Numbered from the stretch's first letter, positions 1,805 to 40,892 are shown. The stretch is 40,917 nt of DNA from Candidatus Nomurabacteria bacterium (GCA_943355135.1 CALREG010000001.1:1-40917), one strand, 5' to 3'. The notes: a model not told the origin generated them from the sequence alone. Numbers and translations are program-made.

Positions 1805-4072
1805 ATGCAGCCCTTGCGCCGCCTAAAGCGGCTCTTCCACCCCTTGTTTACTCAGGGAGACAAAATATTCGTAGATTCCATCCGCTACACGCATCGGCAT
1901 TGGCGAGTGCTCTTTATGTGGGGTATAAGCGCAGGGCTCGTGCTCGGTGGCGGCGGGCTCTTGTGGGCGGCCACACTCGAGTTGCCCGACCTACACTCGC
2001 TAGAGACCCGCAAGACTGAGCAGTCGGTCAAGATATACGACCGCACCGGAGAAGTCTTGCTCTATGACCTCCATAAAAACATGCAGCGCACCGTAGTACC
2101 GCTGGACTCCATCTCCCCTTTTATAAAGCAGGCCATAGTCGCGATAGAAGACCCTGAGTTTTATACCCATAAAGGGGTCAAGCCGACTGCTATCATGCGC
2201 GCAATCTTTACTAACGCGACGCAGGGCGAATTACTTTCTGGTCAAGGCGGTTCCACTATCACCCAACAGGTGGTCAAACTCACGGTTCTTACCACAGACA
2301 AAACAATCACCCGCAAGCTCAAAGAGTGGGTCTTGGCACTCAAAATGGAACGCTCGTTGTCCAAAGAGCAAATTCTTGAACTCTATCTCAACCAAGTACC
2401 CTTCGGCGGACAACTCTACGGTATAGAAGAAGCTTCGATGACCTTCTTTGGCAAACACGCAAGCGACATCACCCTGCCCGAAGCGGCATACTTGGCGGCC
2501 GTATTGCCGGCACCAACACGACTCTCTCCGTACGGCACCCATATAGACCAATTGGAAGTGCGAAAAAAACTAGTGCTTAACAAAATGCTGGAGCATGGCT
2601 ACATCACCGAGACCGAACGCGCTGAAGCACAAAGTGCCTCAGTAACCTTTGTTCCTCCGCGTGACACTTCCATCGCGGCGCCACACTTTGTATTTTATGT
2701 GCGCCAGTATTTGGAAGACAAGTATGGCCAAGACGCGCTCGAGCAGAGCGGCTGGCGCGTCACCACCACGCTCGACGTCGACCTCCAAACGCGCGCTGAA
2801 GAAATTGTGCATCGCCAAGCCCTCGCCAACACCGAAAAATTTAGCGCCACCAACATGGCTATGGTCTCGCTTGATCCAAAGACTGGCCAAATTTTGACCA
2901 TGGTCGGCTCGCGCAACTACTTTGATACTGACATCCCCGGCGCCTACAATGTCACCACTATGAGTCCGGGGCGCCAGCCGGGTTCGTCTTTTAAGCCGTT
3001 CGTGTACGCGCAAGCATTTTCTGAAGGGTACACTCCCGAGACCGTTGTGTTTGATGTACGCACCCAATTTTCCACCAACTGTTCGCCATCAAACATGACC
3101 TCCGACGACGGTTGCTACGCTCCCGGCAACTACGACGACAAATTCCGCGGTCCTATGTCACTACGCGAAGCGTTGGCACAATCAATCAACGTGCCGGCGG
3201 TCAAAGTATTGTATTTAGTGGGTATAAACGACGCGCTCAAAATAGCAAAGTCTATGGGCATCTCTACACTCTCCAACTCGGACCAGTACGGACTGACACT
3301 GGTACTCGGCGGTGGCGAAGTAATTCCACTTGATATGGCGAGTGCCTACGGCGCCTTTGCCGCTGATGGTATGCACTACGACACCACTCCTATTTTGCGT
3401 ATAGAAGACGCTCAAGGAGCGGTCATCGAAGACAATACTGAGCGCAACGGCAACCAAGTGCTCTCTGTGGAAGTTGCTCAAAAAATAAATGATGTCCTTT
3501 CTGATAAAGTGGCCGCCGCTCCACTCGGACTTAATTCCTACCGCGATTTTGGCGGCCAGGAAGTCGCGGTCAAAACTGGTACCACCAACGACTACCGCGA
3601 CGCTTGGATACTCGGTTACACGCCAAATATTGTTACCGCCTTCTGGGCAGGCAACAATGACAACAAAGCAATGGACCACAAGGCCGGCGGACCTATTGTT
3701 GCCCCTGCGTGGAGCGAATTTATGCACTATGCGCTTACCAAAGTTGCATCACAACCTTTCACCCGCATGGAATACTCACCTGCCGCAAAACCTATTTTAA
3801 ACGGTGTGTGGCAGATACCAGGAGCGGACGGTCTCGTGCACGAAATACTCTACTGGGTCAGCAAGACCAACCCGACCGGCCCACAACCCGCAGACCCCTC
3901 AATAGACCCACAATACGAGCGCTGGGATGCCCCTGTACGCACGCAATACGGCGGGTATGGTGTTGCCACACCCCCTCCCTCTGTCATACAGCCTCAGACT
4001 CCACAAATCCAACAGCCACAATATCAAAACCCTTATGGCGGCTCCTTTGTCCCCTACTACCCCGCACAATAA
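1805..4072 (+). CDS. ponA: Class A penicillin-binding protein (transglycosylase/transpeptidase)
   Basis: GT51 motifs EDPEFYTHKGV, GGSTITQQ and RKLKEW. Transpeptidase motifs SSFKP, SIN and KTGTT. N-terminal TM segment and a Q/P-rich C-terminal tail. TGgTAGAAT (1790-1798) lies 6 nt upstream of the ATG. Confidence 0.93.
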   Translation: MQPLRRLKRLFHPLFTQGDKIFVDSIRYTHRHWRVLFMWGISAGLVLGGGGLLWAATLELPDLHSLETRKTEQSVKIYDRTGEVLLYDLHKNMQRTVVPLDSISPFIKQAIVAIEDPEFYTHKGVKPTAIMRAIFTNATQGELLSGQGGSTITQQVVKLTVLTTDKTITRKLKEWVLALKMERSLSKEQILELYLNQVPFGGQLYGIEEASMTFFGKHASDITLPEAAYLAAVLPAPTRLSPYGTHIDQLEVRKKLVLNKMLEHGYITETERAEAQSASVTFVPPRDTSIAAPHFVFYVRQYLEDKYGQDALEQSGWRVTTTLDVDLQTRAEEIVHRQALANTEKFSATNMAMVSLDPKTGQILTMVGSRNYFDTDIPGAYNVTTMSPGRQPGSSFKPFVYAQAFSEGYTPETVVFDVRTQFSTNCSPSNMTSDDGCYAPGNYDDKFRGPMSLREALAQSINVPAVKVLYLVGINDALKIAKSMGISTLSNSDQYGLTLVLGGGEVIPLDMASAYGAFAADGMHYDTTPILRIEDAQGAVIEDNTERNGNQVLSVEVAQKINDVLSDKVAAAPLGLNSYRDFGGQEVAVKTGTTNDYRDAWILGYTPNIVTAFWAGNNDNKAMDHKAGGPIVAPAWSEFMHYALTKVASQPFTRMEYSPAAKPILNGVWQIPGADGLVHEILYWVSKTNPTGPQPADPSIDPQYERWDAPVRTQYGGYGVATPPPSVIQPQTPQIQQPQYQNPYGGSFVPYYPAQ

Positions 4073-4084
4073 AAATTGCTAAGA

Positions 4085-5188
4085 CTAGCGGTTCATTGGC
4101 ATCGCCAAGTATAAAAATGAGTCGTCGCCGGCATCTTTAATAAGCAGCGCTTTGCCGGGGCCGTTGGAGTGCAGGCGTACACTGTCGCCCGCGACCGCCT
4201 GCAGGCTGTCGGCCAAATAACGGCCATTAAAAGACACCGCCACCGAGTCGCCTTGGATTGAGGCCTTAACGGTTGAAATCTGCTCGCCCACGTCCGGATT
4301 GCGCGAAGAAAGAAACATTGATTTTTTAGCGGTATCAAGCGAGAGCGACACTTGAGCAAACTTGTCGGCAAAGATAGAAAGAGATTTTAATGCGCTGGAC
4401 ATATCTTCGCGTAGTACCACCGCTTCGGTAGAAAAAGATTTTGGTAGTATCTGGCGGTAATTTGGGAAGGCTCCGTCGAGTAAGCGGCTAGTGTAATACA
4501 CCCCATCGGTCTGCACCGAAAGTTGATTGTCGTTGTAATACAGCTCCACCTCCGCACTTACAGTGTCGAGTATACGCATCAGTTCAGCAGCATTGCGTGC
4601 AGGTAGCAGGAGTTCTGGCACATTGCCGCCAGCGCGGAGCGGGACTTGTTTCTCCGCAAGGCGGAAGGAGTCGGTCGCAACAGCAGTCAATTTACCCGCA
4701 TCTCCATACAACAAAACACTTTGTAGCTCGGGTTTGATAGCCGAGAGCGATGCGCAGTAAGCAACCGAGCGGATGGCACGCACTAAATCACCACTTTTTA
4801 TTTTGAAAGAGTGTTCGGCTGATACGCGCGGCAAGACCGGAAAATCGTCGTGTGGAAGTGTTTTAATTGATGCGTTGGCGCGTTCGGTTTCAACCTTCAA
4901 CACCTCCCCTACCAAATTGGCTGATACTACTTTGCCGCGGGCATTTCCTAAAAATCCGGCCAACACCGACGCTGGTACCGCAACCGTACCTTCGGTCGCA
5001 ACTTTTGCCGGAATAACAATTTCCACTCCACACTCAACATTGGTCGCGCGTAAAATAAGGCGACTCCCTTCGGCAGTTATGAGAATACAACCCAGTACCG
5101 GTAAATTTGCACGCTTCTCTGCAAACCTTGATGCGGTCGAAGAAGCGTTGAGTAGGGTGTCGAGAGTTGTTTCAAATTTCATACTCAT
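4085..5188 (-). CDS. dnaN: DNA polymerase III beta sliding clamp
   Basis: 367 aa with three-domain clamp length, downstream of dnaA. The start may instead be the second ATG at 5182 (MKFETTLD...). Confidence 0.93.
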   Translation of the reverse strand: MSMKFETTLDTLLNASSTASRFAEKRANLPVLGCILITAEGSRLILRATNVECGVEIVIPAKVATEGTVAVPASVLAGFLGNARGKVVSANLVGEVLKVETERANASIKTLPHDDFPVLPRVSAEHSFKIKSGDLVRAIRSVAYCASLSAIKPELQSVLLYGDAGKLTAVATDSFRLAEKQVPLRAGGNVPELLLPARNAAELMRILDTVSAEVELYYNDNQLSVQTDGVYYTSRLLDGAFPNYRQILPKSFSTEAVVLREDMSSALKSLSIFADKFAQVSLSLDTAKKSMFLSSRNPDVGEQISTVKASIQGDSVAVSFNGRYLADSLQAVAGDSVRLHSNGPGKALLIKDAGDDSFLYLAMPMNR

Positions 5189-13794: not shown

Positions 13795-14454
13795 TTATTT
13801 TGTTGCCAGCTGCTCTACTTGCAGTGGCTTTTCCAGCTCGCCGGGGTTAAAGAGCTTGTAGAAGAGCTCTATTACCTCTTCGGTGCCGAGTTTGACCGTG
13901 CGCACGCCGGTGCGCACCAACCCCTGCTCGATGACCGAAATACGCTGCTCCAATTGCGTGCGGTATTGCTCAAACTGCTCGTCGGCCAACGGACCCATCC
14001 CCTTACTGCTTTTTGGGAGGATAGAGCCGAGTATCCCGCCGCTGCGATTGACCAGCGCGGGATCGTACGGCACTACAATAAAGAAGTTTTTGGTCATAAT
14101 ATTTGCGCGCTCGGTAAAGTCTTTGATGAATGCCATATACTCGCGGATTTGTATCTTCATCAACTCATCAAGCTCTTGCGCGTAGCGGTCTTGCAGGAGC
14201 GCAATGTAGGGGCGGATGTCGAGGTCGCGGCTTTGTATAGAAAACTCCACCGTAAACTCGAGTGAGTTGAGGAAGTTTTGAAACTGTCCGATGATAGCCT
14301 GTTGTTCGTCCTGCGACTTGAGCGCCAAGTTTATAGATGAAGCCATCAAGAGCACGCGCAAAGAGCCGTCTTTCAATATAATAACGCCGTCGCGCACCTC
14401 TTTGATAGGTACAAATTCCTGCGTCGCCTTAGATTTTATTTTTGTATCAGGCAT
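13795..14454 (-). CDS. ATPase-less VirB4 N-terminal-domain-like protein
   Basis: 219 aa. EFVPIKEVRDGVIILKDGSLRVLLMASSINLALKSQDEQQAIIGQFQNFLNSL follows the pattern I recall from N-termini of Gram-positive VirB4 homologs (Tn916 Orf16/TcpF type). No Walker motifs. Confidence 0.55.
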   Translation of the reverse strand: MPDTKIKSKATQEFVPIKEVRDGVIILKDGSLRVLLMASSINLALKSQDEQQAIIGQFQNFLNSLEFTVEFSIQSRDLDIRPYIALLQDRYAQELDELMKIQIREYMAFIKDFTERANIMTKNFFIVVPYDPALVNRSGGILGSILPKSSKGMGPLADEQFEQYRTQLEQRISVIEQGLVRTGVRTVKLGTEEVIELFYKLFNPGELEKPLQVEQLATK

Positions 14455-14894
14455 TATATTTCAAAACCGCTCTTTGCAGCGGTGGAGGCTCCCGATTCGG
14501 TATGGTCTTTGATATTGAGTGACCAAGACAGGTCTTTGAGCTTGCTCTGCGAGAGTTTTGGAATGGGTAGGTTGGCTGGCTTGGCGGCAACAACAGCCAC
14601 TTTCGCGCTCTCGGTGCGTTGTTTCCACAGATACAGCTTGCTCCCAAAAAAGTAATTGAAGCCGTGTTCAACTGCATGTATGAGCGGCCTGCCGTTTATT
14701 TCAAAGAAAGCGAGCCCGGCCGAAAAGGCCATGACGGGAATTCCTAAGATTATTGTAAGGTAGAGCGGCAGAAGGGAAAAAAGTAGGAGGCACAGCCCTC
14801 CCCCGCCGGCGAGCCAGATAAACTGCTTGAGCGTCAGCGGCCCAAAGATTTTATCCTCTACCTCTATAAATTGAGGAACTTGATACTGAGCCAT
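14454..14894 (-). CDS. PrgI/VirB3-like small membrane protein
   Basis: The N-terminus MAQYQVPQFIEVEDKIFGPLTLKQFIWL is followed by two TM helices, the PrgI-family pattern. It lies immediately upstream of the VirB4-type genes. Confidence 0.65.
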   Translation of the reverse strand: MAQYQVPQFIEVEDKIFGPLTLKQFIWLAGGGGLCLLLFSLLPLYLTIILGIPVMAFSAGLAFFEINGRPLIHAVEHGFNYFFGSKLYLWKQRTESAKVAVVAAKPANLPIPKLSQSKLKDLSWSLNIKDHTESGASTAAKSGFEI

Positions 14895-14901
14895 TGCTCT
14901 A

Positions 14902-14919
14902 AGTATACCCCATGAGATA
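14902..14919 (-). promoter_or_regulatory. Motif copy A: TATCTCATGGGGTATACT, 7 nt upstream of the prgI-like ATG
   Basis: The rc of 14902-14919 reads TATCTCATGGGGTATACT. The TATACT -10-like box (14902-14907) is followed by 7 nt and then ATG at 14894. Confidence 0.6.
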
Positions 14920-14933
14920 ATCGTGTTGTTACT

Positions 14934-15194
14934 ATGTACTACGTTTATATTTTGCGTAGCCCCAAGCAGTTTTATACCGGTTCAACCAACGACTTAAAAA
15001 GACGCTTTTCCGAGCATCAAGAGGGTAAATCCTTTGCAACAAAAGGAAAAGGTCCTTGGCAGCTTGTCTATTATGAGGCTTGTACATCCGAAAAAGATGC
15101 TCGACTACGTGAAAAATATCTAAAAACTGCTTGGGGTAAAAGATATATTAAAGCTCGTTTAAAATATGACCTCGCTATCTCACGGGGTATATAG
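14934..15194 (+). CDS. Small GIY-YIG (URI-domain) nuclease family protein
   Basis: MYYVYILRS...FYTGSTNDLKRRFSEHQEGK...PWQLVYYE...REKYLK matches the stand-alone GIY-YIG family; 86 aa. It lies on the opposite strand inside the T4SS-like locus. Confidence 0.9.
   Translation: MYYVYILRSPKQFYTGSTNDLKRRFSEHQEGKSFATKGKGPWQLVYYEACTSEKDARLREKYLKTAWGKRYIKARLKYDLAISRGI
15176..15191 (+). repeat. Motif copy E (TATCTCACGGGGTATA), inverted partner of 14904-14919
   Basis: 15 of 16 positions are complementary to TATACCCCATGAGATA at 14904-14919. It overlaps the last codons of the GIY-YIG ORF. Confidence 0.7.
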
Positions 15195-15202
15195 CAACTT
15201 TT

Positions 15203-15733
15203 CTATGTAGTTGGCTCGCGATAGGGGTCTGCTTTGTATGGTTGCGGCGCGGTTGGCTCAACTTTAGGTGCTGCAGGTGGAATAAGTGGTTTTGGCGTAG
15301 GAGGAGCTACTGTAGTGACCGTTTTTTGCGAGAGCATCGCGTCGGCAGGGTGTAATTCGGCTGGTTTCGATATTGCCGAGGTGACTGGGGTGCTTGGACC
15401 AGAAGGAGCCCCTTGTCCGTCGGCCTTTTTCATTGAGCCACGGATCGGAACCATAATTTCCTTTCCAATATCTACCGCAATGTCACCCGCTGTTGTGGTG
15501 GATACACTGAGGTCATTAACCAGTTGAGACATAAATTCTTCAGGCTCGGTAAATCCCATCATAAACATGACCACCTCATCCTCGAGTTTGCCCATCTGGT
15601 CTATGTGGAGTTGGTGTTTGCTTCCAATAATCCGGATTTTTTCATGGAGCTGTGGCGACTTGAGGGCCGCTTGTAGTTCGGTCGGCAGCTTAGAAAACTG
15701 CTCCTGCATTAGTTTCTGAGATTCAATGTCCAT
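15203..15733 (-). CDS. Hypothetical soluble protein with a Pro-rich C-terminus (T4SS-locus protein)
   Basis: 176 aa ORF, 17 nt downstream of the VirB6-like gene. No recognisable motif. Confidence 0.7.
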   Translation of the reverse strand: MDIESQKLMQEQFSKLPTELQAALKSPQLHEKIRIIGSKHQLHIDQMGKLEDEVVMFMMGFTEPEEFMSQLVNDLSVSTTTAGDIAVDIGKEIMVPIRGSMKKADGQGAPSGPSTPVTSAISKPAELHPADAMLSQKTVTTVAPPTPKPLIPPAAPKVEPTAPQPYKADPYREPTT

Positions 15734-15750
15734 GTTATTCCGTTAGTCGA

Positions 15751-17895
15751 TTAATGATTATCATCTTTTTTAGGCTCATCCTTCTTTTCCTCTTTTTTCT
15801 CCGCATCACCATGGTCGTCTTCGTTCATCTCCTTAATCTTTTCTATCAATTCATCTGACTTACTCTTCCCTTTTCGTATCTTCTCCGCGGCAGTCTTTTC
15901 TGCCTTTGGTACCCACAAAGAAAGCGTTCTGAAGAGATTGCCCTCATTTGACGTTATGTGTTTAGCAAATTGTTCTTTGTAGTTTGGCGCCAGTTTTGTT
16001 GTTGTAGCTGCAACCTCCTCTTTTTCTTTTTTATCGAATTCAACTTCTCTCTTTTTTGCGGCATCGAGAGCCTCTTTAGCAATCTCTTGAGTGATTTTAT
16101 GTGTATCAATCAATCCTGCGATGTTGCTACGTTGTATATCATTTTGTGCATTACCCAAATCTGTTTCAAGTTGAGCAGCTCTCTTTGTAGAAACTTGGTG
16201 AGTGTCTGCCGCTGTTTTTACTTGAGTTTTTATCGTTGTACGCTCGCTACTGTATTTCTGTTCGAATTCCGCCTTGGCTGCTGTCTCAGCTTTTGCCTTT
16301 TCATCCTTACTCGGGGCTTTAAATTGTTCGGCTTCTTTTTGCAGCGCTTTTACGCGGGCATCGAAGTCTCCTTTATAACCACCCTTATTCGTTGCTTTGC
16401 CAAATTCAAGCGGAGTTACTTTGCCGTGGACATCCACACTCCCTCCAACCAGCCCGAGGCTTTTATTAATTGTTTTTGAGTTTCTGCCGTCGAAAGTGGC
16501 TTTTCCTATCCGGTTGACTCCGCTCAGTAGGTTCCTACCCACCACGCCTTTTGAGCCGAGGTTCTGCATAAATTTACTCTGACCTAGACTGTATGCGCCC
16601 AAGCCGAGCGTATTGCGCCCAGCAAACCCGGCTAAGCCAAAACTCTTACCTGTAAGGTTTCCGGTGACTTTTGAGGCGATACCGCTTCCTTCTTTGACCA
16701 CCCAGTCTGATACCTTTAGTGCCACAAACATCAGTGCGATGATAAAGCCCATACGGATGAACACCGATGCTATAAGGCCGACAGTGGCTATTTCGTCGGT
16801 GCCAGAGCTTGCGGTATTGGCTATTGCGTTAAGCAAGTTTCCATTACCGGTGGTGTTTCCAGTAAGTAGAGTTCCTGCAAACCGAGTGAGTATAAGGAAC
16901 ATAAAAAGGAATATCGCTGGATAGAGCGAAAACTCTACGAGCTTTTTGAGCCATTGGTCAAAGTACCCTTCAGTCTTCTTCATAGTTTTTGCAACAAAAG
17001 CCAACGGTGACGCTATGAGCAAGAACCACAACCCCACAATACGGAGCATAAATTTAATACCCACTTGAATAAAAGTAAAAAACAACATCCAGAGCATCGC
17101 CGCAACAGACAAATAAATCACCGTAAATGTCCCTAGTGCTGCCCAAGCGCCGCCAGAAAAGACACCGCCATTCCCTCCAAGTTTGTCAAAAGTCTCCTTA
17201 CTGAGTAAGACCTGAGGCCCTACGGCTCCCATAATAGAGGTGCTCAAGTCTTTGACACCGTTGATTTGCACTATCTTGCCGTCCGCTCCTACGCCGGCGG
17301 GGATAGCATTATAAAACTGCAAGGCTAAAATGTTACCCATGTCTATTACCACGCGGGTAAAGAAGAAGCTGAAGTTGACTAACAAGGCAATGACCACAAC
17401 TATTGCGAGTGTTTTGATGGTGCCGGAAGTTTCGGCCTGTAACATGACGGTCATCGCGATGTAGACGAGGATAAAGATGAACGACATGTTGGCAAGATCG
17501 CGCACCGTGGTCCATCCGTCAGAAAGAAAGCCAAGTGCATAGGCGGTTGAGTTGAGCGAGAGTTGCACCACAATACTAAAGAAGTACGCACCCACATAAG
17601 CTACTTTACTGGCGATGAGGGGGCCTATGTAGTACATGATCACAGCCAAGCACTCTGTGATGCCCGATTTGCACTCCATTTCTGTAGAAGCAGAAGGTGT
17701 ACTGTAAGGATTTGCTTGTGTCTGTTGCGCAGTATTGTACTGTGTTTGAAGTTGTTGACATTCCGCAACATTCCCTGGATTTTGTCTTAGACATTCCTCC
17801 TGCGAGAACGGAGCGGCCTCTGCTTGTATTGGCAAAAAACTGAATACCAATATTCCAAGGGCTACTCCAAATAGTATTTTTTTACTGGAACGCAT
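15751..17895 (-). CDS. VirB6/TrbL-like polytopic membrane protein with a Lys/Glu-rich C-terminal tail
   Basis: 714 aa with a signal peptide, a Cys-containing exposed segment, at least 7 predicted TM helices and a roughly 250-aa charged, coiled-coil-like tail. Assignment rests on topology and context only. Confidence 0.55.
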   Translation of the reverse strand: MRSSKKILFGVALGILVFSFLPIQAEAAPFSQEECLRQNPGNVAECQQLQTQYNTAQQTQANPYSTPSASTEMECKSGITECLAVIMYYIGPLIASKVAYVGAYFFSIVVQLSLNSTAYALGFLSDGWTTVRDLANMSFIFILVYIAMTVMLQAETSGTIKTLAIVVVIALLVNFSFFFTRVVIDMGNILALQFYNAIPAGVGADGKIVQINGVKDLSTSIMGAVGPQVLLSKETFDKLGGNGGVFSGGAWAALGTFTVIYLSVAAMLWMLFFTFIQVGIKFMLRIVGLWFLLIASPLAFVAKTMKKTEGYFDQWLKKLVEFSLYPAIFLFMFLILTRFAGTLLTGNTTGNGNLLNAIANTASSGTDEIATVGLIASVFIRMGFIIALMFVALKVSDWVVKEGSGIASKVTGNLTGKSFGLAGFAGRNTLGLGAYSLGQSKFMQNLGSKGVVGRNLLSGVNRIGKATFDGRNSKTINKSLGLVGGSVDVHGKVTPLEFGKATNKGGYKGDFDARVKALQKEAEQFKAPSKDEKAKAETAAKAEFEQKYSSERTTIKTQVKTAADTHQVSTKRAAQLETDLGNAQNDIQRSNIAGLIDTHKITQEIAKEALDAAKKREVEFDKKEKEEVAATTTKLAPNYKEQFAKHITSNEGNLFRTLSLWVPKAEKTAAEKIRKGKSKSDELIEKIKEMNEDDHGDAEKKEEKKDEPKKDDNH

Positions 17896-19768: not shown

Positions 19769-20652
19769 TGAGGGTACGAAGAAACAAAAACGTCCCAGGA
19801 TGTCCCCGGCTCGTCTTTACTGAAAAGTATACCGCCTTTACGCAGTTGCTCGGCGAGCGTTGTTAACACACGTGCCGATTCTGTACCCGCGGTTTGGAAG
19901 CTTTGCAACCCCGAAAGTCCGCGCATCGGGTCTTCGAGGACCATACGCATCTCTCCGGTAGCCACCGACATTGTCGAAAGGTTATTAATGAGCGGCAGAT
20001 AGAGCGGAACGAGTGTTGTGGGGACAGGAATGTTGGCAAGATCCTCTGCCAACGCGGTATACTCTGCCCCTATACCCACAAGAGACTTGAGTGTGGCGGC
20101 GTCATTGTAGTCGGTAGCATACCCGATGGCATACAAAACATCGTCGTTGCTGGCTTTAGGGTGCTTTCTAAAGGTTTGCATAACCGCATTACCCCACGTG
20201 CGCATAGTGGCCGCGTTTTGAGATACTGCATTGAGGTCAGTCGCTTTATATTGAATACTCTCAATACTCCCTACCCGAGCGGCGGCGTCGGCTATAAGCT
20301 TTTCTTGGGTGGGTATATCGTTGCCAAGGCCCTGCGCGTTGGCATTGCTGAGGTTTATAAAGAGTGAGCGTGCTACGCTTGAGGTTACATTTGAGCTCTG
20401 AGCCTCTTTTAGTAATGCTTGTATGGTGTCTTCGCTCGGCGCGGCGGGGAGTTCGGGAGCTCCTGCTTGCGCTGCCTCTAGTGCAGCCTGCCAATCTTCG
20501 GCGGGAGTGGGCTGATCAGCACTTAATACGGCTGCGGGGCTGCTTTTAGGCGCAGTAATATATTGTGCCAGCAAGATAAGTGCGCCAGAGAGTGCAATAG
20601 ACACCACTATGGTTGAAAATCGTGAACTCGGGAGATACGAAGCAACATTCAT
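19765..20652 (-). CDS. Hypothetical N-anchored protein; first gene of the T4SS-like locus
   Basis: 295 aa with one TM helix (IVVSIALSGALILLAQYI). Motif copy B lies 7 nt upstream of the ATG. Confidence 0.7.
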   Translation of the reverse strand: MNVASYLPSSRFSTIVVSIALSGALILLAQYITAPKSSPAAVLSADQPTPAEDWQAALEAAQAGAPELPAAPSEDTIQALLKEAQSSNVTSSVARSLFINLSNANAQGLGNDIPTQEKLIADAAARVGSIESIQYKATDLNAVSQNAATMRTWGNAVMQTFRKHPKASNDDVLYAIGYATDYNDAATLKSLVGIGAEYTALAEDLANIPVPTTLVPLYLPLINNLSTMSVATGEMRMVLEDPMRGLSGLQSFQTAGTESARVLTTLAEQLRKGGILFSKDEPGTSWDVFVSSYPQ

Positions 20653-20659
20653 TACCTCA

Positions 20660-20677
20660 AGTATACCCCGTGAGATA
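20660..20677 (-). promoter_or_regulatory. Motif copy B: TATCTCACGGGGTATACT, 7 nt upstream of ATG 20652
   Basis: The rc of 20660-20677 reads TATCTCACGGGGTATACT, followed by TGAGGTA and then ATG. Confidence 0.6.
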
Positions 20678-20712
20678 GTCTGGGTAGTCGCGCGTCGTGA
20701 ATAATTATCATA

Positions 20713-20730
20713 TATCTCACAGGGTATACT
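20713..20730 (+). promoter_or_regulatory. Motif copy C: TATCTCACAGGGTATACT, 8 nt upstream of ATG 20739
   Basis: Reads TATCTCACAGGGTATACT, followed by GTACCTAC and then ATG. It is divergent from copy B, 35 nt away. Confidence 0.6.
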
Positions 20731-20738
20731 GTACCTAC

Positions 20739-21080
20739 ATGCATACTATTTCGAGATTGTTAGTTACGGGGCTGATGTTAGCCGGGCTTTCGGCACCTCT
20801 CATCAGTCAGGCGCTCATTGTTCCCATTGGGGGCAAGATAACTAAGGTTGTATTTTGTTTAAACGGGGGTATTTACTTTACCGTTCTTGGTTTTGGCGCA
20901 GGGGCAGGCGCTTTTACCTTTACACCAGGATCAATCTTGTATCCATGGGGTCCGCCGCGACCAGGAGTAAATGTTCTCGGCGCGGCAGATGTACCCTACG
21001 GGTGCGTCATTTCAGTCAAACCGCCGATTGTGCTCCCGAGCCTCCGAGTATTTATGAGCGGGACAAGTCTATCCATTTAG
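20739..21080 (+). CDS. Small secreted hypothetical protein
   Basis: The start was moved from the track GTG at 20697 to ATG at 20739 because of the motif spacing. It has the signal peptide MHTISRLLVTGLMLAGLSAPLISQA and is 113 aa. The 3' end overlaps convergent rsmA by 29 nt. Confidence 0.6.
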   Translation: MHTISRLLVTGLMLAGLSAPLISQALIVPIGGKITKVVFCLNGGIYFTVLGFGAGAGAFTFTPGSILYPWGPPRPGVNVLGAADVPYGCVISVKPPIVLPSLRVFMSGTSLSI

Positions 21081-21804: not shown

Positions 21805-23691
21805 CTAGTCTAAGTATATGGTTTTGCCTAGACGTTCGGGGCTCTCGGCTTGCAATAGGTCGCCAGAGATTTCTTGCAGGAATAGCGAGCTACTCCGCAC
21901 GTCGGTGTTGCCAAATATCGTGCGCATCATTGCGTAGGATAGGTAGAGCTTTTGTTTTGCCCGCGTCAGCGCCACATACATCAGTCTGCGCTCCTCCTCG
22001 AGGCTGTCTTTGGTATCGTCCTCCCGCTCGTAGGGGAAGAGGCCTTCCTCGAGTCCGATGATGAATACGCAGGGGAATTCCAGCCCTTTGGCCGCATGTA
22101 CGGTCATAAGTCGCACTTGGTTTTTGTGCTCTTTTAGTTCGTCTTGGTCGCTCGCAAGGGCCGCAGACTCTAAAAACTTTTCCAAACCTTCCGGTTGGGG
22201 CAATACATCATATCGCGCAGCAAGCGACACCAACTCGGCGAGGTTTTCTAGTCGCTCGGCCCCTTCCGACTTATCTTCTTTGAGTGCTTGTTCTATTCCG
22301 CTTTCTGTCACTACCATACGCAAAAGTTTTGAGGGCGCAGCTGTGGCTGCATTGGTTTGTATGGTCGCGAGTAGCCGACGCATCGACGCAACTCGCTCGC
22401 GCGTTTTGCCTGTCAGCGCAGCCTCCTGTCCTGCGAGGATTTTTAATTTTGTCACCTTTCCTATTCCCGGCAGAGTGTCTATCACACGCCCAATGTCAGC
22501 GGAATTTTCGCTCACGGCGGCGCGCACAAACGACAGTACATCTTTGACCTCTTTGCGTTCAAAAAAGCGGGTGCCGAGCACTTGGTACGGGATGCTCGCG
22601 TTGAGCAACTTTTCTTCTATCGCACGCGACTGAAAGTTGGCACGATAGAGCACCGCGAAGTCTTGCGGCGCCCGGCCGTCGTCGAGCAGCTCTTGGATTT
22701 TGCGGGCAACAAACGTCGCTTCGTCTCCCCCGTCGCCCGCGATGTAGAGCGAAATAGCTTCGCCGTCAGCATTGTTAGTAAAAAGATTTTTCTCCGGACG
22801 ATTGGTGTTGTTGCTGATTACTTGGTTGGCGGCGGTGAGTATGGTCTTGGTGGAGCGGTAGTTTTGTTCAAGGGTTATCATCACTCCGCCGTACTTCTTT
22901 TCAAACTGGAGCATGTTTTCAATCTGCGCTCCGCGCCAGCCATAGATAGTTTGGTCTATGTCACCCACGACGCAAATATTTTTTTCTGGCCCGACTAGTA
23001 GTTCGGCGAGCCGGGCTTGTATAAGGTTAGTGTCTTGATATTCATCGACGTGTATATAGCTCCAGCGTTTTTGGCATCGCTCGCGCACGTCCGGAAATTT
23101 CTCCAACAGTTGTACCGCGCGCAGCAGCAGGTCATCAAAGTCCATCGCGGTGTCCGCGCGGAGGGCACTTTCATATTTGAGCCACGCTTGCGCTATTTGT
23201 TTGTCCCGCCACGAAACGGCCCCTTCGGCGTACTCACCGGCCCCAATTCCCTCTCCTTTATTGCGTGAGGCGACCGCTAAAGCAGTCCGTGGTTCGATAT
23301 CTTCGGCGCCGGCAGACTTGAGTGCCGCCTTCATCTCTCGCAGAGAGTCGGCGCGGTCATAGATTGCCGGAGTGCGCTTATAGCCGAGCAGCTTGGCGTT
23401 CTCCTTTATAAGAGTGAGTCCGAGCGAGTGAAAGGTGGATACAAAGGGTCCACTGCCTTGATCGCGAGCAAAGCTCGCCGCAATCCGCGAGCGCATTTCG
23501 GCCGCCGCTTTGTTGGTAAAGGTGATAGCCAAGATGCTTTCAGGCGCCACCCCGTGGCGGATGATATTGCGGATACGATCGGCAATGACCTTAGTTTTGC
23601 CCGCCCCTGCTCCCGCGAGTACTAATAGGGGGCCCTCTATTGACTCAACGCACTTCTGTTGTTCTGAGTTGAGTTTGGGTAGCGGGTCCAT
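21805..23691 (-). CDS. UvrD/PcrA/Rep-family superfamily 1 DNA helicase
   Basis: Walker A AGAGAGKT, HVDEYQDTN (motif II), NYRS, and the C-terminal VHAAKGLEF and YVALTRAK motifs. TATAGT (rc of 23698-23703) lies 6 nt upstream of the ATG. Confidence 0.9.
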   Translation of the reverse strand: MDPLPKLNSEQQKCVESIEGPLLVLAGAGAGKTKVIADRIRNIIRHGVAPESILAITFTNKAAAEMRSRIAASFARDQGSGPFVSTFHSLGLTLIKENAKLLGYKRTPAIYDRADSLREMKAALKSAGAEDIEPRTALAVASRNKGEGIGAGEYAEGAVSWRDKQIAQAWLKYESALRADTAMDFDDLLLRAVQLLEKFPDVRERCQKRWSYIHVDEYQDTNLIQARLAELLVGPEKNICVVGDIDQTIYGWRGAQIENMLQFEKKYGGVMITLEQNYRSTKTILTAANQVISNNTNRPEKNLFTNNADGEAISLYIAGDGGDEATFVARKIQELLDDGRAPQDFAVLYRANFQSRAIEEKLLNASIPYQVLGTRFFERKEVKDVLSFVRAAVSENSADIGRVIDTLPGIGKVTKLKILAGQEAALTGKTRERVASMRRLLATIQTNAATAAPSKLLRMVVTESGIEQALKEDKSEGAERLENLAELVSLAARYDVLPQPEGLEKFLESAALASDQDELKEHKNQVRLMTVHAAKGLEFPCVFIIGLEEGLFPYEREDDTKDSLEEERRLMYVALTRAKQKLYLSYAMMRTIFGNTDVRSSSLFLQEISGDLLQAESPERLGKTIYLD

Positions 23692-23894
23692 ATGCCCACT
23701 ATACCCTCAAAACCCTTATATTCCAACGGTTTTTCATCAAATCTACAGGGTTTTTCCACAGCTCGGCTTTCGGGCGGTTGACGCGGCTTAAACGATCTGC
23801 GTATAGTAAAAAGGTACAGGGACGGGAGTTAAAAAACGGCTCAACTAAGCCATTTTTTAGCGGAATTACGCAAAATACAGCCTAGAATAACGCT

Positions 23895-27199: not shown

Positions 27200-27763
27200 C
27201 TACGAAGTTTTCAGGACAGCAGGATCCCTCGTCTGTTCCTGGATAACCAGTTCGTAGATTCGCTGGCCAGAAACTGTGAGACCATTATCTTTTCTGTATT
27301 GTTTAAATTTAAGAATATTTTCTCGCTGCTCGGGTGTAATAGCTATGGTTGAAATATCGAGGTGACCAGCATTTAATATTCGTGCACGCTCGGCCGCACT
27401 GATAAACCAGATATCAAAATTCCAGCGCTCCTCTTGTATCAATGCTTTGAGCATAATAAGCCGTCCTACCGGCTTTGCGTTGCCCAGCTTAGGATCATCC
27501 CAATCGCTTTTTATGTAGTAACTCATAAAACGCGAAGTTGTCGCAAGGTGAATAGTTTTTGCTACTTCGAACATCTCTGCCATTTCAAACTCTTTTTCTC
27601 TTACCACTCCAATATCGACATCACCGTGTAGCATGACATTCCCAGCATACGCGCCTTCAATAAAGGTGCTGCCAAATTGTTCGAGACAACGAATGAGACC
27701 GGATTCATGCAGAAAGGCGTCAGCCTGATCGTGATAAGTTTGGGCCTTTTCGGTGAGTGTCAT
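27200..27763 (-). CDS. Hypothetical protein with a pol-beta-type nucleotidyltransferase signature
   Basis: GAYAGNVMLHGDVDIGV fits the G[SA]-x(9-10)-DxD NTase pattern; 187 aa. TATACT (rc of 27770-27775) lies 6 nt upstream of the ATG. Confidence 0.5.
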   Translation of the reverse strand: MTLTEKAQTYHDQADAFLHESGLIRCLEQFGSTFIEGAYAGNVMLHGDVDIGVVREKEFEMAEMFEVAKTIHLATTSRFMSYYIKSDWDDPKLGNAKPVGRLIMLKALIQEERWNFDIWFISAAERARILNAGHLDISTIAITPEQRENILKFKQYRKDNGLTVSGQRIYELVIQEQTRDPAVLKTS

Positions 27764-27932: not shown

Positions 27933-28247
27933 CTATGCCATGTGCAGCTTGCAAGTAGCAGCTGCAGGGTTTGCCTCAAGACGGTCTGCTTCTATCTTCT
28001 CGCCACACTCTTCGCAGAAGCCGTAGGTGCCGGCGTCCATGCGGGCAACAGCGGCTATAATTTCATTTTTACGCGCCAGAAGGGTCGCCTTTTCAGACGA
28101 GTGTTCCTCTTCGGCCTCCATGCGGTCGGCGAGCTCGTCGGATTCGGTGGCAGTCGGGTCTATGTCCTCTACCCCAAGGTCCGAGAGCTCCTGCTTGACC
28201 ACATCTATCTCCTCTTCTAGCTTTGCCCGCAGTTCTTCGTTTGTCAT
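27933..28247 (-). CDS. DksA/TraR-family C4 zinc-finger protein
   Basis: The C-terminus FCEECGEKIEADRLEANPAAATC is the Cx2C-x17-Cx... zinc-finger pattern. The start was moved to ATG 28247 (MTNEELRAKLEEE). TATACT (rc of 28256-28261) lies 8 nt upstream. Confidence 0.8.
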   Translation of the reverse strand: MTNEELRAKLEEEIDVVKQELSDLGVEDIDPTATESDELADRMEAEEEHSSEKATLLARKNEIIAAVARMDAGTYGFCEECGEKIEADRLEANPAAATCKLHMA

Positions 28248-39916: not shown

Positions 39917-39990
39917 TGGTGCGGATAGGGAGAATCGAACTCCCGTCTCAACCTTGGCAAGGTCGTGTTCTACCACTAAACCATATCCGC
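39917..39990 (-). tRNA. tRNA-Gly (anticodon GCC), CCA encoded
   Basis: The rc reads GCGGATA-TG-GTTT-AGTGGTA-GAAC-A-CGACC-TTGCCAA-GGTTG-AGAC-GGGAG-TTCGATT-CTCCC-TATCCGC-A-CCA. This gives a full cloverleaf of 74 nt. Confidence 0.9.
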
Positions 39991-40125
39991 TTTTATGTTT
40001 TTAAATGTGCCCCGCCTGCCGGCGGGCAGGTTCGTGAGTGAATATAACATGCATCCGCACTAAAGTTTAGTGTGGACTATGGGGAATGTCTGCTACGATA
40101 AACCCAGCCTATCCTATAGGCTCAT

Positions 40126-40197
40126 GCGTCTGTGGTGAAATGGATATCATCGCTGCCTTCGAAGCAGTTGTTGGGGGTTCGAGTTCCTCCAGACGCA
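40126..40197 (+). tRNA. tRNA-Arg (anticodon UCG), no encoded CCA
   Basis: Reads GCGTCTG-TG-GTGA-AATGGATA-TCAT-C-GCTGC-CTTCGAA-GCAGT-TGTT-GGGGG-TTCGAGT-TCCTC-CAGACGC-A. The T-stem contains two G-T pairs, hence the reduced confidence. Confidence 0.7.
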
Positions 40198-40275
40198 CAT
40201 GACACAACGGATGCTCAAAGACATCCATACTGGGGATATTGAAAACCTCCAAAACAAAGGGTTTTCAGCGACTTC

Positions 40276-40284
40276 TGTGGATAA
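40276..40284 (-). promoter_or_regulatory. Perfect DnaA box (TGTGGATAA, rc TTATCCACA)
   Basis: Exact 9-mer, followed directly by AAACTGGGGATA. The same 12-mer also follows the DnaA-box-like TGTGGAGAA at 6805-6813. Confidence 0.45.
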
Positions 40285-40385
40285 AACTGGGGATATGTGC
40301 ATTAAAGGACACAAAAAGGTCTGTCCTTCATGCCCTTTTCATATAAAACACCCAAAAGTGTTTCATATGTAACGTTCCACGTGAA

Positions 40386-40420
40386 CCCCATGAGATGGCG
40401 GCTTCGCCTATCTCACGGGG
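40386..40420 (+). promoter_or_regulatory. Motif copy D as a hairpin/palindrome just upstream of yraN
   Basis: CCCCATGAGAT (40386-40396), a 12-nt spacer, then TATCTCACGGGG (40409-40420). It is flanked by the direct repeat GTGAACCC (40381-40388 and 40420-40427). ATG at 40431. Confidence 0.5.
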
Positions 40421-40430
40421 TGAACCCACT

Positions 40431-40802
40431 ATGACAAAGACTCCAAAAAGGAAAACTGGCGATATTGGCGAAGAGGTAGTCTGCCAATACCTAGAAAGAA
40501 AGGGATTTCGGGTATTGGAGCGTAATTATCTGCGGAAATGGGGTGAGATAGATATTATTGCCGAAAAAGGGGATTTGATTAGTTTTGTCGAGGTAAAGAC
40601 TGTTACACGTGCAACAGGGCTCCGGCCAGAGGAAAATATGCACCCCGCAAAGCTCAAAAGACTCCATCGGGCGATCCAAACTTACTTGTTGGATAGAAAG
40701 GTGCCGGAAGAGAGACCTTGGAGGGTCGACTTAGCTTGTGTTTATTTGGACTTTTCGACTAGAAAGGCTACAGTAGAGGTTATAGAGAACGTAATACTCT
40801 AA
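40431..40802 (+). CDS. yraN: YraN/UPF0102 family endonuclease-like protein
   Basis: GEEVVCQYLERKGFRVLERNYLRKWGEIDIIAEKGDLISFVEVKT is the UPF0102 signature. The start was moved from 40395 to ATG 40431. Confidence 0.85.
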   Translation: MTKTPKRKTGDIGEEVVCQYLERKGFRVLERNYLRKWGEIDIIAEKGDLISFVEVKTVTRATGLRPEENMHPAKLKRLHRAIQTYLLDRKVPEERPWRVDLACVYLDFSTRKATVEVIENVIL

Positions 40803-40818
40803 AGGACACTAAAAGACA

Positions 40819-40892
40819 CGGGGCGTAGTATACTGGTAGTACAACTGCTTTGGGAGCAGTTAGACCGAGTTCGATTCTCGGCGCCCCGACCA
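40819..40892 (+). tRNA. tRNA-Pro (anticodon UGG), CCA encoded
   Basis: Reads CGGGGCG-TA-GTAT-ACTGGTA-GTAC-A-ACTGC-TTTGGGA-GCAGT-TAGA-CCGAG-TTCGATT-CTCGG-CGCCCCG-A-CCA. The C1:G72 pair is typical of bacterial tRNA-Pro. Confidence 0.88.

Follow-up and report, generated by a model that had tools for sequence, protein, structure and literature searches.

Inverted repeats bracket a small GIY-YIG nuclease gene in a type IV secretion-like locus of a Candidatus Nomurabacteria bacterium and suggest a mobile, promoter-restoring cassette

A nuclease gene between two arms in a type IV secretion-like locus

In a 40,917-nt stretch of DNA from a Candidatus Nomurabacteria bacterium (GCA_943355135.1 CALREG010000001.1:1-40917; hereafter the window, with positions counted from its first letter), the segment from 14,902 to 15,194 carries an 86-amino-acid (aa) GIY-YIG nuclease gene within a locus resembling a type IV secretion system (T4SS). 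The gene is bracketed by two inverted repeats of 16 nt, hereafter arms, TATACCCCATGAGATA on the left (14904-14919) and TATCTCACGGGGTATA on the right (15176-15191), which were read from the sequence and recovered by a repeat finder, are complementary at 15 of 16 positions and enclose 256 nt. An earlier note, made from the sequence alone, had described this bracket and had called the nuclease the only opposite-strand gene of the locus, and both statements were borne out: the open reading frame (ORF) is the sole plus-strand gene between 8529 and 20652, a run otherwise on the minus strand. The right arm is contained in the ORF's 3′ end, which there encodes ..ISRGI*, and, read outward, it faces a convergent gene of 176 aa at its 3′ end, where it has nothing to drive. 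The features of this cassette (arms plus ORF) and of its immediate surroundings are as follows.

14904..14919, no strand assigned: left arm, TATACCCCATGAGATA, with core CCCCATGAGATA, from the repeat finder; the same arm stands upstream of GIY-YIG homologues at 47 of 80 metagenome loci.
15176..15191, no strand assigned: right arm, TATCTCACGGGGTATA, overlapping the 3′ end of the GIY-YIG ORF.
14934..15194, plus strand: GIY-YIG nuclease ORF, 86 aa (Pfam E=1.1e-16), the last five residues being read-through of the right arm.
14913..14921, plus strand: extended −10-like box TGAGATAAT, 12 nt ahead of the GIY-YIG ATG, made up of the left arm's inner end and an adjoining AT.
14902..14907, minus strand: TATACT, the −10 box of the prgI-like operon as re-formed at the junction; the arm supplies the GGGG ahead of it, and 7 nt separate it from the ATG at 14894.
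14454..14894, minus strand: PrgI-family gene (Pfam PrgI E=1.9e-9), first of the downstream half of the T4SS-like locus.
15203..15733, minus strand: 176-aa gene closing the upstream half of the locus; its orthologues directly precede prgI in L061 and L101.
14960..14973, no strand assigned: 5′ half of an inner inverted repeat, CCCCAAGCAGTTTT, from the repeat finder (codons for PKQF).
15123..15136, no strand assigned: 3′ half of the inner inverted repeat, AAAACTGCTTGGGG, from the repeat finder (codons for KTAWG).

Allowing up to three mismatches, the 16-mer was found at seven sites in the window against 0.19 expected, a number reached by none of 100 shuffles. The seven sites make up the inverted pairs 14904/15176, 20662/20713 and, in degenerate form, 40382/40409, plus one weak single site, so that the motif is not special to the nuclease gene. 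The cassette thus carries terminal inverted repeats, as do insertion sequences and MITEs (miniature transposable elements with inverted repeats), and its nuclease gene is enclosed by inverted copies of a genome-wide repeat, as in the systems formed by repetitive extragenic palindromic (REP) sequences, their doublets (REPINs) and the REP-associated tyrosine transposases (RAYTs). The idea of a chance inverted repeat or an assembly artefact around an ordinary housekeeping UPF0213 gene, in favour of which only the small size of the repeat speaks, can be given practically no weight, being refuted by the above enrichment, by the identical cassette locus in two independent assemblies (L001 from Logan and L002 from ENA) and by the recurrence of the layout on dozens of unrelated contigs.

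Beyond the left arm, the PrgI-family gene is followed by TraC-like and VirB4-like genes (P-loop_TraG in Pfam, E=6e-26; TraC-like by annotation). The earlier note had proposed a search for T4SS loci lacking the insert, and two such loci, L061 and L120, were found and aligned to the window. In L061, with a PrgI 74% identical, an identical gene order and no cassette, the coding strand reads TAA-aaggtggga-TATAAT-taagtgcg-ATG, that is, 9 nt from stop to box and 8 nt from box to ATG. In L120, likewise free of the cassette, it reads TAA-(20 nt)-TATAAT-actttt-ATG, and a 229-aa ORF at the matching position is probably the orthologue of the 176-aa gene; in L101 one lone arm stands ahead of prgI. The window itself reads TAG-aaaagttgc-TATA[TACCCCGTGAGATA ... 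TATCTCATGGGGTA]TACT-tagagca-ATG. Since its stop-to-TATA distance of 9 nt and its box-to-ATG distance of 7-8 nt match L061, the cassette lies inside a native −10 box that is re-formed on the prgI side: the arm ends in GGGGTATA and abuts the host CT, and GGGGTATACT is thereby re-created 7 nt from the prgI ATG.

This alignment bears on several points raised earlier. The outward-reading motif of the left arm had been placed 7 nt from the prgI-like ATG, and the minus strand does run TATCTCATGGGGTATACT, TAGAGCA, ATG (14894). That a selfish cassette with an outward promoter avoids polarity on the downstream genes gains support from the empty orthologous sites, from the homologues with the same flanks and from the arm-to-start spacing, with the correction that the cassette does not bring a complete promoter with it: a TATAAT is present even at the empty sites, and the GGGG+TATA end of the cassette re-forms the box together with the host CT. 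The upstream half of the locus was said to end 8 nt from the right repeat; its stop codon (15203-15205) is in fact 11 nt off, 8 nt being the distance from the GIY-YIG stop. The lack of a terminator there had been noted correctly, yet the operon boundary with its internal promoter was not made by the insert, and both the internal promoter and the missing terminator are native to the T4SS-like locus.

In the window, the first gene of an operon typically shows a −10-like box (GGGTATAnT in many cases) at a distance of 6-8 nt from its start codon and no Shine-Dalgarno sequence, for instance GGGTATACT-ttcctt-ATG at 27763 and GGGTATAGT-gggcat-ATG at 23691; further sites of this type are seen at 28247, 1805 and 8057. 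This spacing indicates transcripts that are probably leaderless or nearly so, and suggests that the transcripts of this organism are mostly leaderless. As judged from sequence and position, TGAGATAAT is likely the promoter of the nuclease gene, and GAGATAAT followed by 6-9 nt and ATG is also found in the homologues L121-L129 and L211. The T4SS site is polymorphic for presence and absence, as the sites of homing endonuclease genes are, being filled in the window and empty in L061 and L120. Mobility is further supported by a second polymorphic site, where a Lloydbacteria cassette (L211) lies between uvrD and LysM-M23, abutting the uvrD −10, and the syntenic uvrD/LysM-M23 region of the window (23692-23894) is empty.

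The nuclease and its repeat-bracketed homologues

The 86-aa protein matches the Pfam GIY-YIG family (PF01541) with 61.3 bits against a cut-off of 22.6 (E=1.1e-16), and Y5, Y14, G16, R24, H28 and E48 are invariant among 28 homologues; by analogy, these would be the catalytic-type residues of GIY-YIG enzymes (Tyr of GIY, Tyr/Gly of YIG, Arg and Glu). Its best solved relative by sequence is PDB 1zg2 (E=2.9e-7). With an AlphaFold (AF2) model (pLDDT 87.5; residues 82-86 below 50 and disordered) as query, Foldseek ranked 1zg2 (UPF0213 protein BH0048) first and then Slx1 (7cq3_A; TM 0.61, rmsd 1.6 Å, 71 columns), and gave only a weak match to I-TevI. The protein is a bare Slx1/UPF0213-type GIY-YIG domain without accessory domain: it has just the ~80-aa catalytic part and no separate DNA-binding domain of the homing endonuclease kind, and as a GIY-YIG protein it is not the Y1 (HUH) transposase of REP/RAYT systems. 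Slx1 is a structure-selective nuclease, so the protein may reasonably be supposed to act on a hairpin or cruciform made by the arms. Matches to PADLOC defence systems were marginal (E 5e-4 and 4e-3 over ~30 residues) and the full-cassette pattern had no match in IMG/VR, and a defence-system gene and a phage origin were accordingly set aside.

A protein search returned >1,700 homologues, mostly of 80 aa. In 80 metagenome loci obtained through protein alignment of GIY-YIG homologues, a CCCCGTGAGAT-type core was found 1-35 nt upstream of the ATG in 47 and its complement at or just past the stop also in 47, while 42 of the 80 have a CGTGAGAT-type core on both sides. With a bracket taken to be an inverted repeat, of score at least 9, that pairs the 3′ end with the upstream 70 nt, 59 of the 75 homologue loci with complete flanks were bracketed, compared with 2 of 75 when the downstream flanks were shuffled; flanks of this kind are therefore a trait of the family. 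The same arm-ORF-arm layout was seen in L093 and L119, two genome loci selected by motif. In distant homologues the arms are of other sequence and still inverted (CCCGTTAGAGA / TCTCTAACGGG; CCCCGTTAGATA / TATCTAACGGGG; CCACGTGAGATA / TATCTCACGTGG; TGCGTTAGAGA / TCTCTAACGCA), with a 27-nt inverted repeat in distant soil homologues. In a comparison of 42 distinct arm pairs, changes on both sides were seen at 10 of 16 positions (68 cells), a result that none of 500 shuffles reached, and 87.5% of the positions pair, as against 29-52% in slid registers. The arm sequences co-vary with the nuclease subfamily. The cassette family occurs mainly in Parcubacteria/Paceibacteria of the candidate phyla radiation (CPR), with arms of 12-16 nt and the core CCCCRTGAGATA ... 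TATCTCAYGGGG. By the names of its homologues, the window belongs to this group as well.

Across the family, the part of the right arm shared with the ORF end is read in each of the three frames: 86-aa homologues end in (L/I)SHGV, encoded by cTATCTCACGGGGTAta in a frame different from the ISRGI of the window, and the third frame gives the YLTG ending of other homologues. It is therefore the DNA that is conserved here, not the peptide.

Cassettes were also found inside RNA and protein genes. In six loci (L126, L128, L129, L130, L131 and L133) the right arm runs straight into AGGAAAGTCC, which is P4 sequence from RNase P RNA, and L128 (3247-3990) matches RNaseP_bact_a of Rfam with 61.5 bits (E=3.7e-18). 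In L128, inspection by eye puts P1 and P2 ahead of the left arm, so that the arms form helix P3 and the ORF stands in its loop in sense orientation. Two more ORF-less hairpins with related arms lie in other peripheral helices of the same gene (3558-3646 and 3796-3888). No RNase P gene without the insert, by which the native P3 could be defined, was present among the loci examined. L143 and L149, loci of ~90% identity, each have a YhcG-type PDDEXK nuclease gene that is interrupted by the cassette between ..GQMQIY and VNVNYYD...; both YhcG halves stay open in the two loci, and in-silico excision of the cassette gives an uninterrupted PF06250 match over positions 2-156 of 157 (E=2e-48). L143 and L149 differ by three ORF-less doublets, one of 63 nt and in frame and two abutting cassette arms, which indicates that doublets were gained or lost recently. 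The 63-nt doublet of L149 falls in the FVD|LVFY motif of YhcG. L158, L163 and L179/L180 apparently have a cassette in homologous YhcG genes as well, a reading that is unconfirmed. A reverse transcriptase gene of L166 has immediately upstream of it an Lcl_C-like stretch, rich in Asn codons, into which a cassette is inserted (~2400-4500), a layout resembling a diversity-generating retroelement (template or variable repeat).

Folding of the cassette is of interest in this context. Both strands of 14895-15202 fold with the arms paired in their minimum free energy (MFE) structures (z = -4.9 and -5.2), and the halves of the inner repeat, which is perfect over 14 nt and roughly symmetrical ~40 nt inside the outer arms, pair in the MFE folds of both strands too. 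The inner repeat is kept at 12-14 of 14 positions, synonymous sites included, in the closest (PKQFY) subfamily only. One may therefore ask whether the cassette acts at the RNA level, as an intervening-sequence-like insert whose ends pair into a stem, so that host transcripts (operon read-through, RNase P RNA, rRNA, YhcG mRNA) keep their fold or have the insert cut out by a double-strand RNase and are possibly rejoined, with the nuclease gene as a passenger or maturase-like. The paired arms and the inner conserved stem agree with this, as do the arms that take the place of P3 in RNase P RNA, the two related ORF-less hairpins in other peripheral helices of that RNA, and the YhcG halves, which in L143 and L149 stay open to either side of the insert. 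A further point of agreement is that insertions with GIY-YIG ORFs are reported from CPR rRNA genes, where they lie at stem-loops and belong to neither the group I nor the group II introns (PMC11270868). At divergent promoters, however, the arms stand upstream of both starts and would not be transcribed; at the variable arm position, read on the sense strand, G.U and A.C are equal in number (4 and 4), so that no single RNA strand is favoured; the cassette has no Rfam match at the gathering score or at E<=5; 12-16 pairs are short for RNase III; and no ligation activity is known for such sites in bacteria. We consider a role at the RNA level unlikely. A group I or group II intron was rejected, as no ribozyme core was found in Rfam at E<=5 and only ~30 nt lie outside the ORF.

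Doublets without a gene and arms at gene starts

An exact scan for the 16-mer, with one genome per species, returned >118 stretches, nearly all from Parcubacteria, and one inverted arm pair was found in 64 of 120 loci (L001-L120). The spacers between the 11-nt cores fall into lengths of 7-19, 35-41 and 68-79 nt, and ~270 nt where the nuclease gene is inside. Doublets usually abut leaderless gene starts: a start codon (of an ORF of at least 60 codons) lies 8-11 nt past the 16-mer in 64 of 217 arms, with a peak at 8, the background at random positions being 8% for a slightly wider window of 7-12 nt. Only one arm is start-adjacent in 41 of 77 doublets, and both arms in 4. On the promoter strand, the far arm of a doublet is preceded by TGn in ~17 of 42 cases against ~2.6 expected from 1/16 (flanks read by eye), an excess that would be expected if an extended −10, TGnTATAMT, had been split into TGnTATA on one side and TATAMT on the other. 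The spacers are not decayed GIY-YIG ORFs (best local alignment 13.2 versus 13.1 for shuffled sequence, p=0.57), nor were they found to be structured RNAs, their MFE being the same as that of shuffles and no position outside the arm being conserved. No link was seen between the C/T state of an arm and the promoter side.

One ORF-less doublet of the window illustrates this geometry.

20662..20728, no strand assigned: ORF-less doublet with the same arms and a 35-nt spacer, between two divergent genes.

Each of its arms (20662/20713) is followed by CT, 7-8 nt and an ATG, at 20652 on the minus strand and at 20739 on the plus strand; the latter gene encodes a 113-aa protein with a signal-peptide-like N-terminus. 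L061 has a doublet at the orthologous position, its arms conserved and its spacer diverged.

Such findings raise the alternative that the arms are a host promoter module or operator, covering −24 to −13 of leaderless promoters and often set back to back, whose spacer was invaded by a GIY-YIG homing gene. A third of the arms stand at a fixed distance from start codons, solo promoter arms are kept between orthologues (L008 vs L058; L101), the arms at 20662/20713 are kept in L061 despite spacer drift, the spacers are unrelated and of sharp length classes, and the lack of T/T arm pairs (0 vs ~10 expected) hints at functional constraint, all of which would fit a host site. Against this explanation stand arms that bracket the nuclease where no promoter is needed, as in P3 of RNase P RNA and inside YhcG and the Lcl_C-like coding sequence, and the right arm of the window faces the 3′ end of a convergent gene. 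Moreover, the arm sequence varies with the nuclease subfamily, the empty T4SS sites have a working-looking −10 of their own and no arm, and other promoters of the same genome (27778, 28264) do without an arm. We regard the host-site explanation as rather unlikely. It corresponds to the second option of the earlier note, homing of a nuclease into the spacer of a palindromic site, which is not favoured: the arms accompany the gene into RNase P RNA, YhcG and other promoters, co-vary with the nuclease subfamily and are missing from the empty T4SS sites.

A candidate mobile element and its relation to known systems

With moderate confidence, we favour a mobile, palindrome-bounded GIY-YIG cassette whose ends restore a host promoter. 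The cassette sits inside the native −10 box ahead of the prgI-like gene, and the junction of the arm end with the host CT re-creates GGGGTATACT, a leaderless-type promoter form used elsewhere in the genome, so that transcription of prgI and of the TraC-like and VirB4 genes could continue despite the insert. The nuclease gene would be transcribed divergently from TGAGATAAT, at the inner end of the same arm, and its product may act on the hairpin or cruciform of its own arms, or on paired arms, and thereby promote copying of the cassette, and perhaps of ORF-less doublets too, into new sites. Tolerated sites would be those where a self-contained hairpin does little harm, such as rebuilt −10 boxes, peripheral RNA helices and some coding sequences. 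Mobility of the cassette accounts for the bracket found throughout the family, for arms that co-vary, for the empty sites, for the variety of contexts and for the geometry at promoters, and is not mutually exclusive with a host-site or an RNA-level role.

Several observations weigh against such a cassette. Near-identical cassettes (at least 85% nucleotide identity) in convincingly different contexts were not found, which leads us to reject recent transposition, and the identical proteins P0021 and P0056 each occur always in one context; the cassettes therefore look old and mostly vertical. TATA stands on both sides together with a displaced TGn, other lineages have a true inverted TTCA..TGAA and the RNase P copies have no duplication; as the flanking TATA is palindromic, a target-site duplication is indistinguishable from the 16-nt repeat. 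A scan of 14300-15900 for −35/−10 consensus promoters found none and no −35 element, so that the sigma-70-type hexamer at 16-18 nt is lacking and only the extended −10-like GGGGTATACT is present. The doublet spacers are unrelated to each other, save L024/L067 and L004/L079, unlike the copies of MITEs or REPINs, and the doublets are thus not mutual copies with a common spacer. The perfect retention of arms at orthologous sites while spacers drift points to host selection on the arms, and at the Y position of TATCTCAYGGGG the 77 arm pairs are C/T in 32, C/C in 26, T/C in 19 and T/T in none, where ~10 would be expected. Extra arms outside cassettes are of the CGTGAGAT type only (9 in 118 kb, a density of ~0.08-0.1 per kb), and the 37 and 43 kb searched around cassettes of types B and C, respectively, yielded no doublets with cognate arms, so that the link between autonomous and non-autonomous forms concerns type A only. 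Finally, all functions of the cassette, its mechanism of mobility included, are ones that we infer. The old, single-context cassettes, the unrelated spacers, the kept arms and the absence of T/T suggest a further role for the arms in the host, within promoters or as sites of binding, or else a maintenance process that acts on them.

More tentatively, and with less than even weight, the mobile cassette may represent a new class of mobile element, in which a bare Slx1-type GIY-YIG nuclease mobilises palindrome-bounded units, the arms plus ORF being autonomous and the ORF-less doublets non-autonomous, as a GIY-YIG analogue of REPIN/RAYT in CPR bacteria. Such units would colonise −10 boxes, as portable leaderless promoters, as well as peripheral helices of RNase P RNA and rRNA and, in frame, coding sequences.

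The closest parallels are the REP/REPIN systems with RAYT (TnpA-REP), in which, as here, a lone small nuclease gene stands between two inverted short repeats, the repeat is scattered genome-wide, often in inverted doublets with a short spacer, and the nuclease is low-copy and vertical-looking. They differ in the enzyme, which here is a Slx1-type GIY-YIG protein and not a Y1 HUH transposase, in that the doublet spacers here are mostly unrelated within one genome, in the lack of a GTAG/CGTC tag, and in that the arms here stand at −10 boxes and gene starts, not at 3′ ends. Correia elements of Neisseria and other promoter-bearing MITEs are palindrome-bounded inserts that create or restore outward promoters beside genes and form hairpins in transcripts. 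The cassette resembles them as a short palindrome-bounded insert restoring an outward promoter. To our knowledge, Correia elements encode nothing and have no known cognate enzyme, whereas the autonomous-looking form here carries a nuclease gene and its target duplication is at most putative. With GIY-YIG homing endonucleases, freestanding or intron-encoded (T4 Seg proteins, I-TevI), the cassette has in common the catalytic fold, a selfish gene of small size set within or between genes of the host, and presence/absence polymorphism among relatives. It differs in having no DNA-binding domain (80-86 aa), in a fold nearer to Slx1/UPF0213 than to I-TevI, and in its bracketing inverted repeats, which are no feature of known homing endonuclease genes. 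Rickettsia palindromic elements are likewise palindromic inserts found in frame in protein genes and in RNA genes (cf. the 63-nt YhcG doublet of L149), but they are unrelated in sequence, occur in another host group and have no known associated nuclease gene.

Insertions in CPR rRNA genes also offer a parallel, and classical 23S rRNA intervening sequences share ends that pair into a stem; such a stem replacing a helix tip is seen in the RNase P RNA relatives of the cassette, the copy in the window being intergenic. The CPR insertions have GIY-YIG ORFs, are neither group I nor group II introns and are scattered over poorly conserved stem-loop sites, and repeats are not mentioned in their description (PMC11270868). 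That account is without inverted repeats, ORF-less doublets or non-rRNA sites. Stand-alone Slx1-like/UPF0213 proteins (BH0048, YhbQ type) are the best matches in sequence and fold and share the minimal GIY-YIG domain, but they are regarded as housekeeping proteins whose role is not known. In a survey of the superfamily, Slx1-like proteins of prokaryotes figure as its minimal form that stands alone, with no mention of flanking inverted repeats or mobility (PMC1564403). In the literature searched, we came across no description of GIY-YIG genes from prokaryotes that lie between inverted repeats, are tied to REP-like doublets or sit in RNase P RNA. Each part is of a known kind, be it the GIY-YIG gene that stands free, the palindromic repeat with its cognate nuclease or the MITE that bears a promoter, and it is their combination that appears new.

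CPR genomes are tiny and tightly packed, and little is known about their transcription and genome change. If the proposal is true, a new enzyme class would be added to the few proteins tied to bacterial palindromic repeats, the very conserved 16-mer upstream of many Parcubacteria genes would be explained, and one explanation would be at hand for odd inserts in CPR rRNA and RNase P RNA genes. It would also provide a candidate portable promoter for leaderless genes in organisms not yet engineerable, and gives a testable role to widespread stand-alone Slx1-like (UPF0213) proteins of unknown function.

Some arms are arranged more densely or in shorter form. In L111, 13 cores occur in ~600 nt (2700-3290) around an assembly gap, and dense arm clusters or tandem arrays are also seen in L086 and in L067/L024. 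L067 has two tandem units with an identical 73-nt spacer, a copy of which lies on another contig of the same metagenome-assembled genome (L024). A CRISPR-like array was considered for the abutting arms of L143 and L111 and is not favoured, as a doublet typically stands alone at its site and cas genes were not seen. The short form in the window is the following.

40382..40424, no strand assigned: degenerate short doublet or hairpin with an 11-nt spacer, GCGGCTTCGCC, directly upstream of a YraN-family gene (ATG 40431).

As the same arms and loop recur in L012, L016 and L056, not beside yraN, this short hairpin form is a dispersed repeat in its own right. In the window, three tRNA genes (Gly-GCC, Arg-TCG and Pro-TGG) flank yraN and the hairpin, at 39917-40892.

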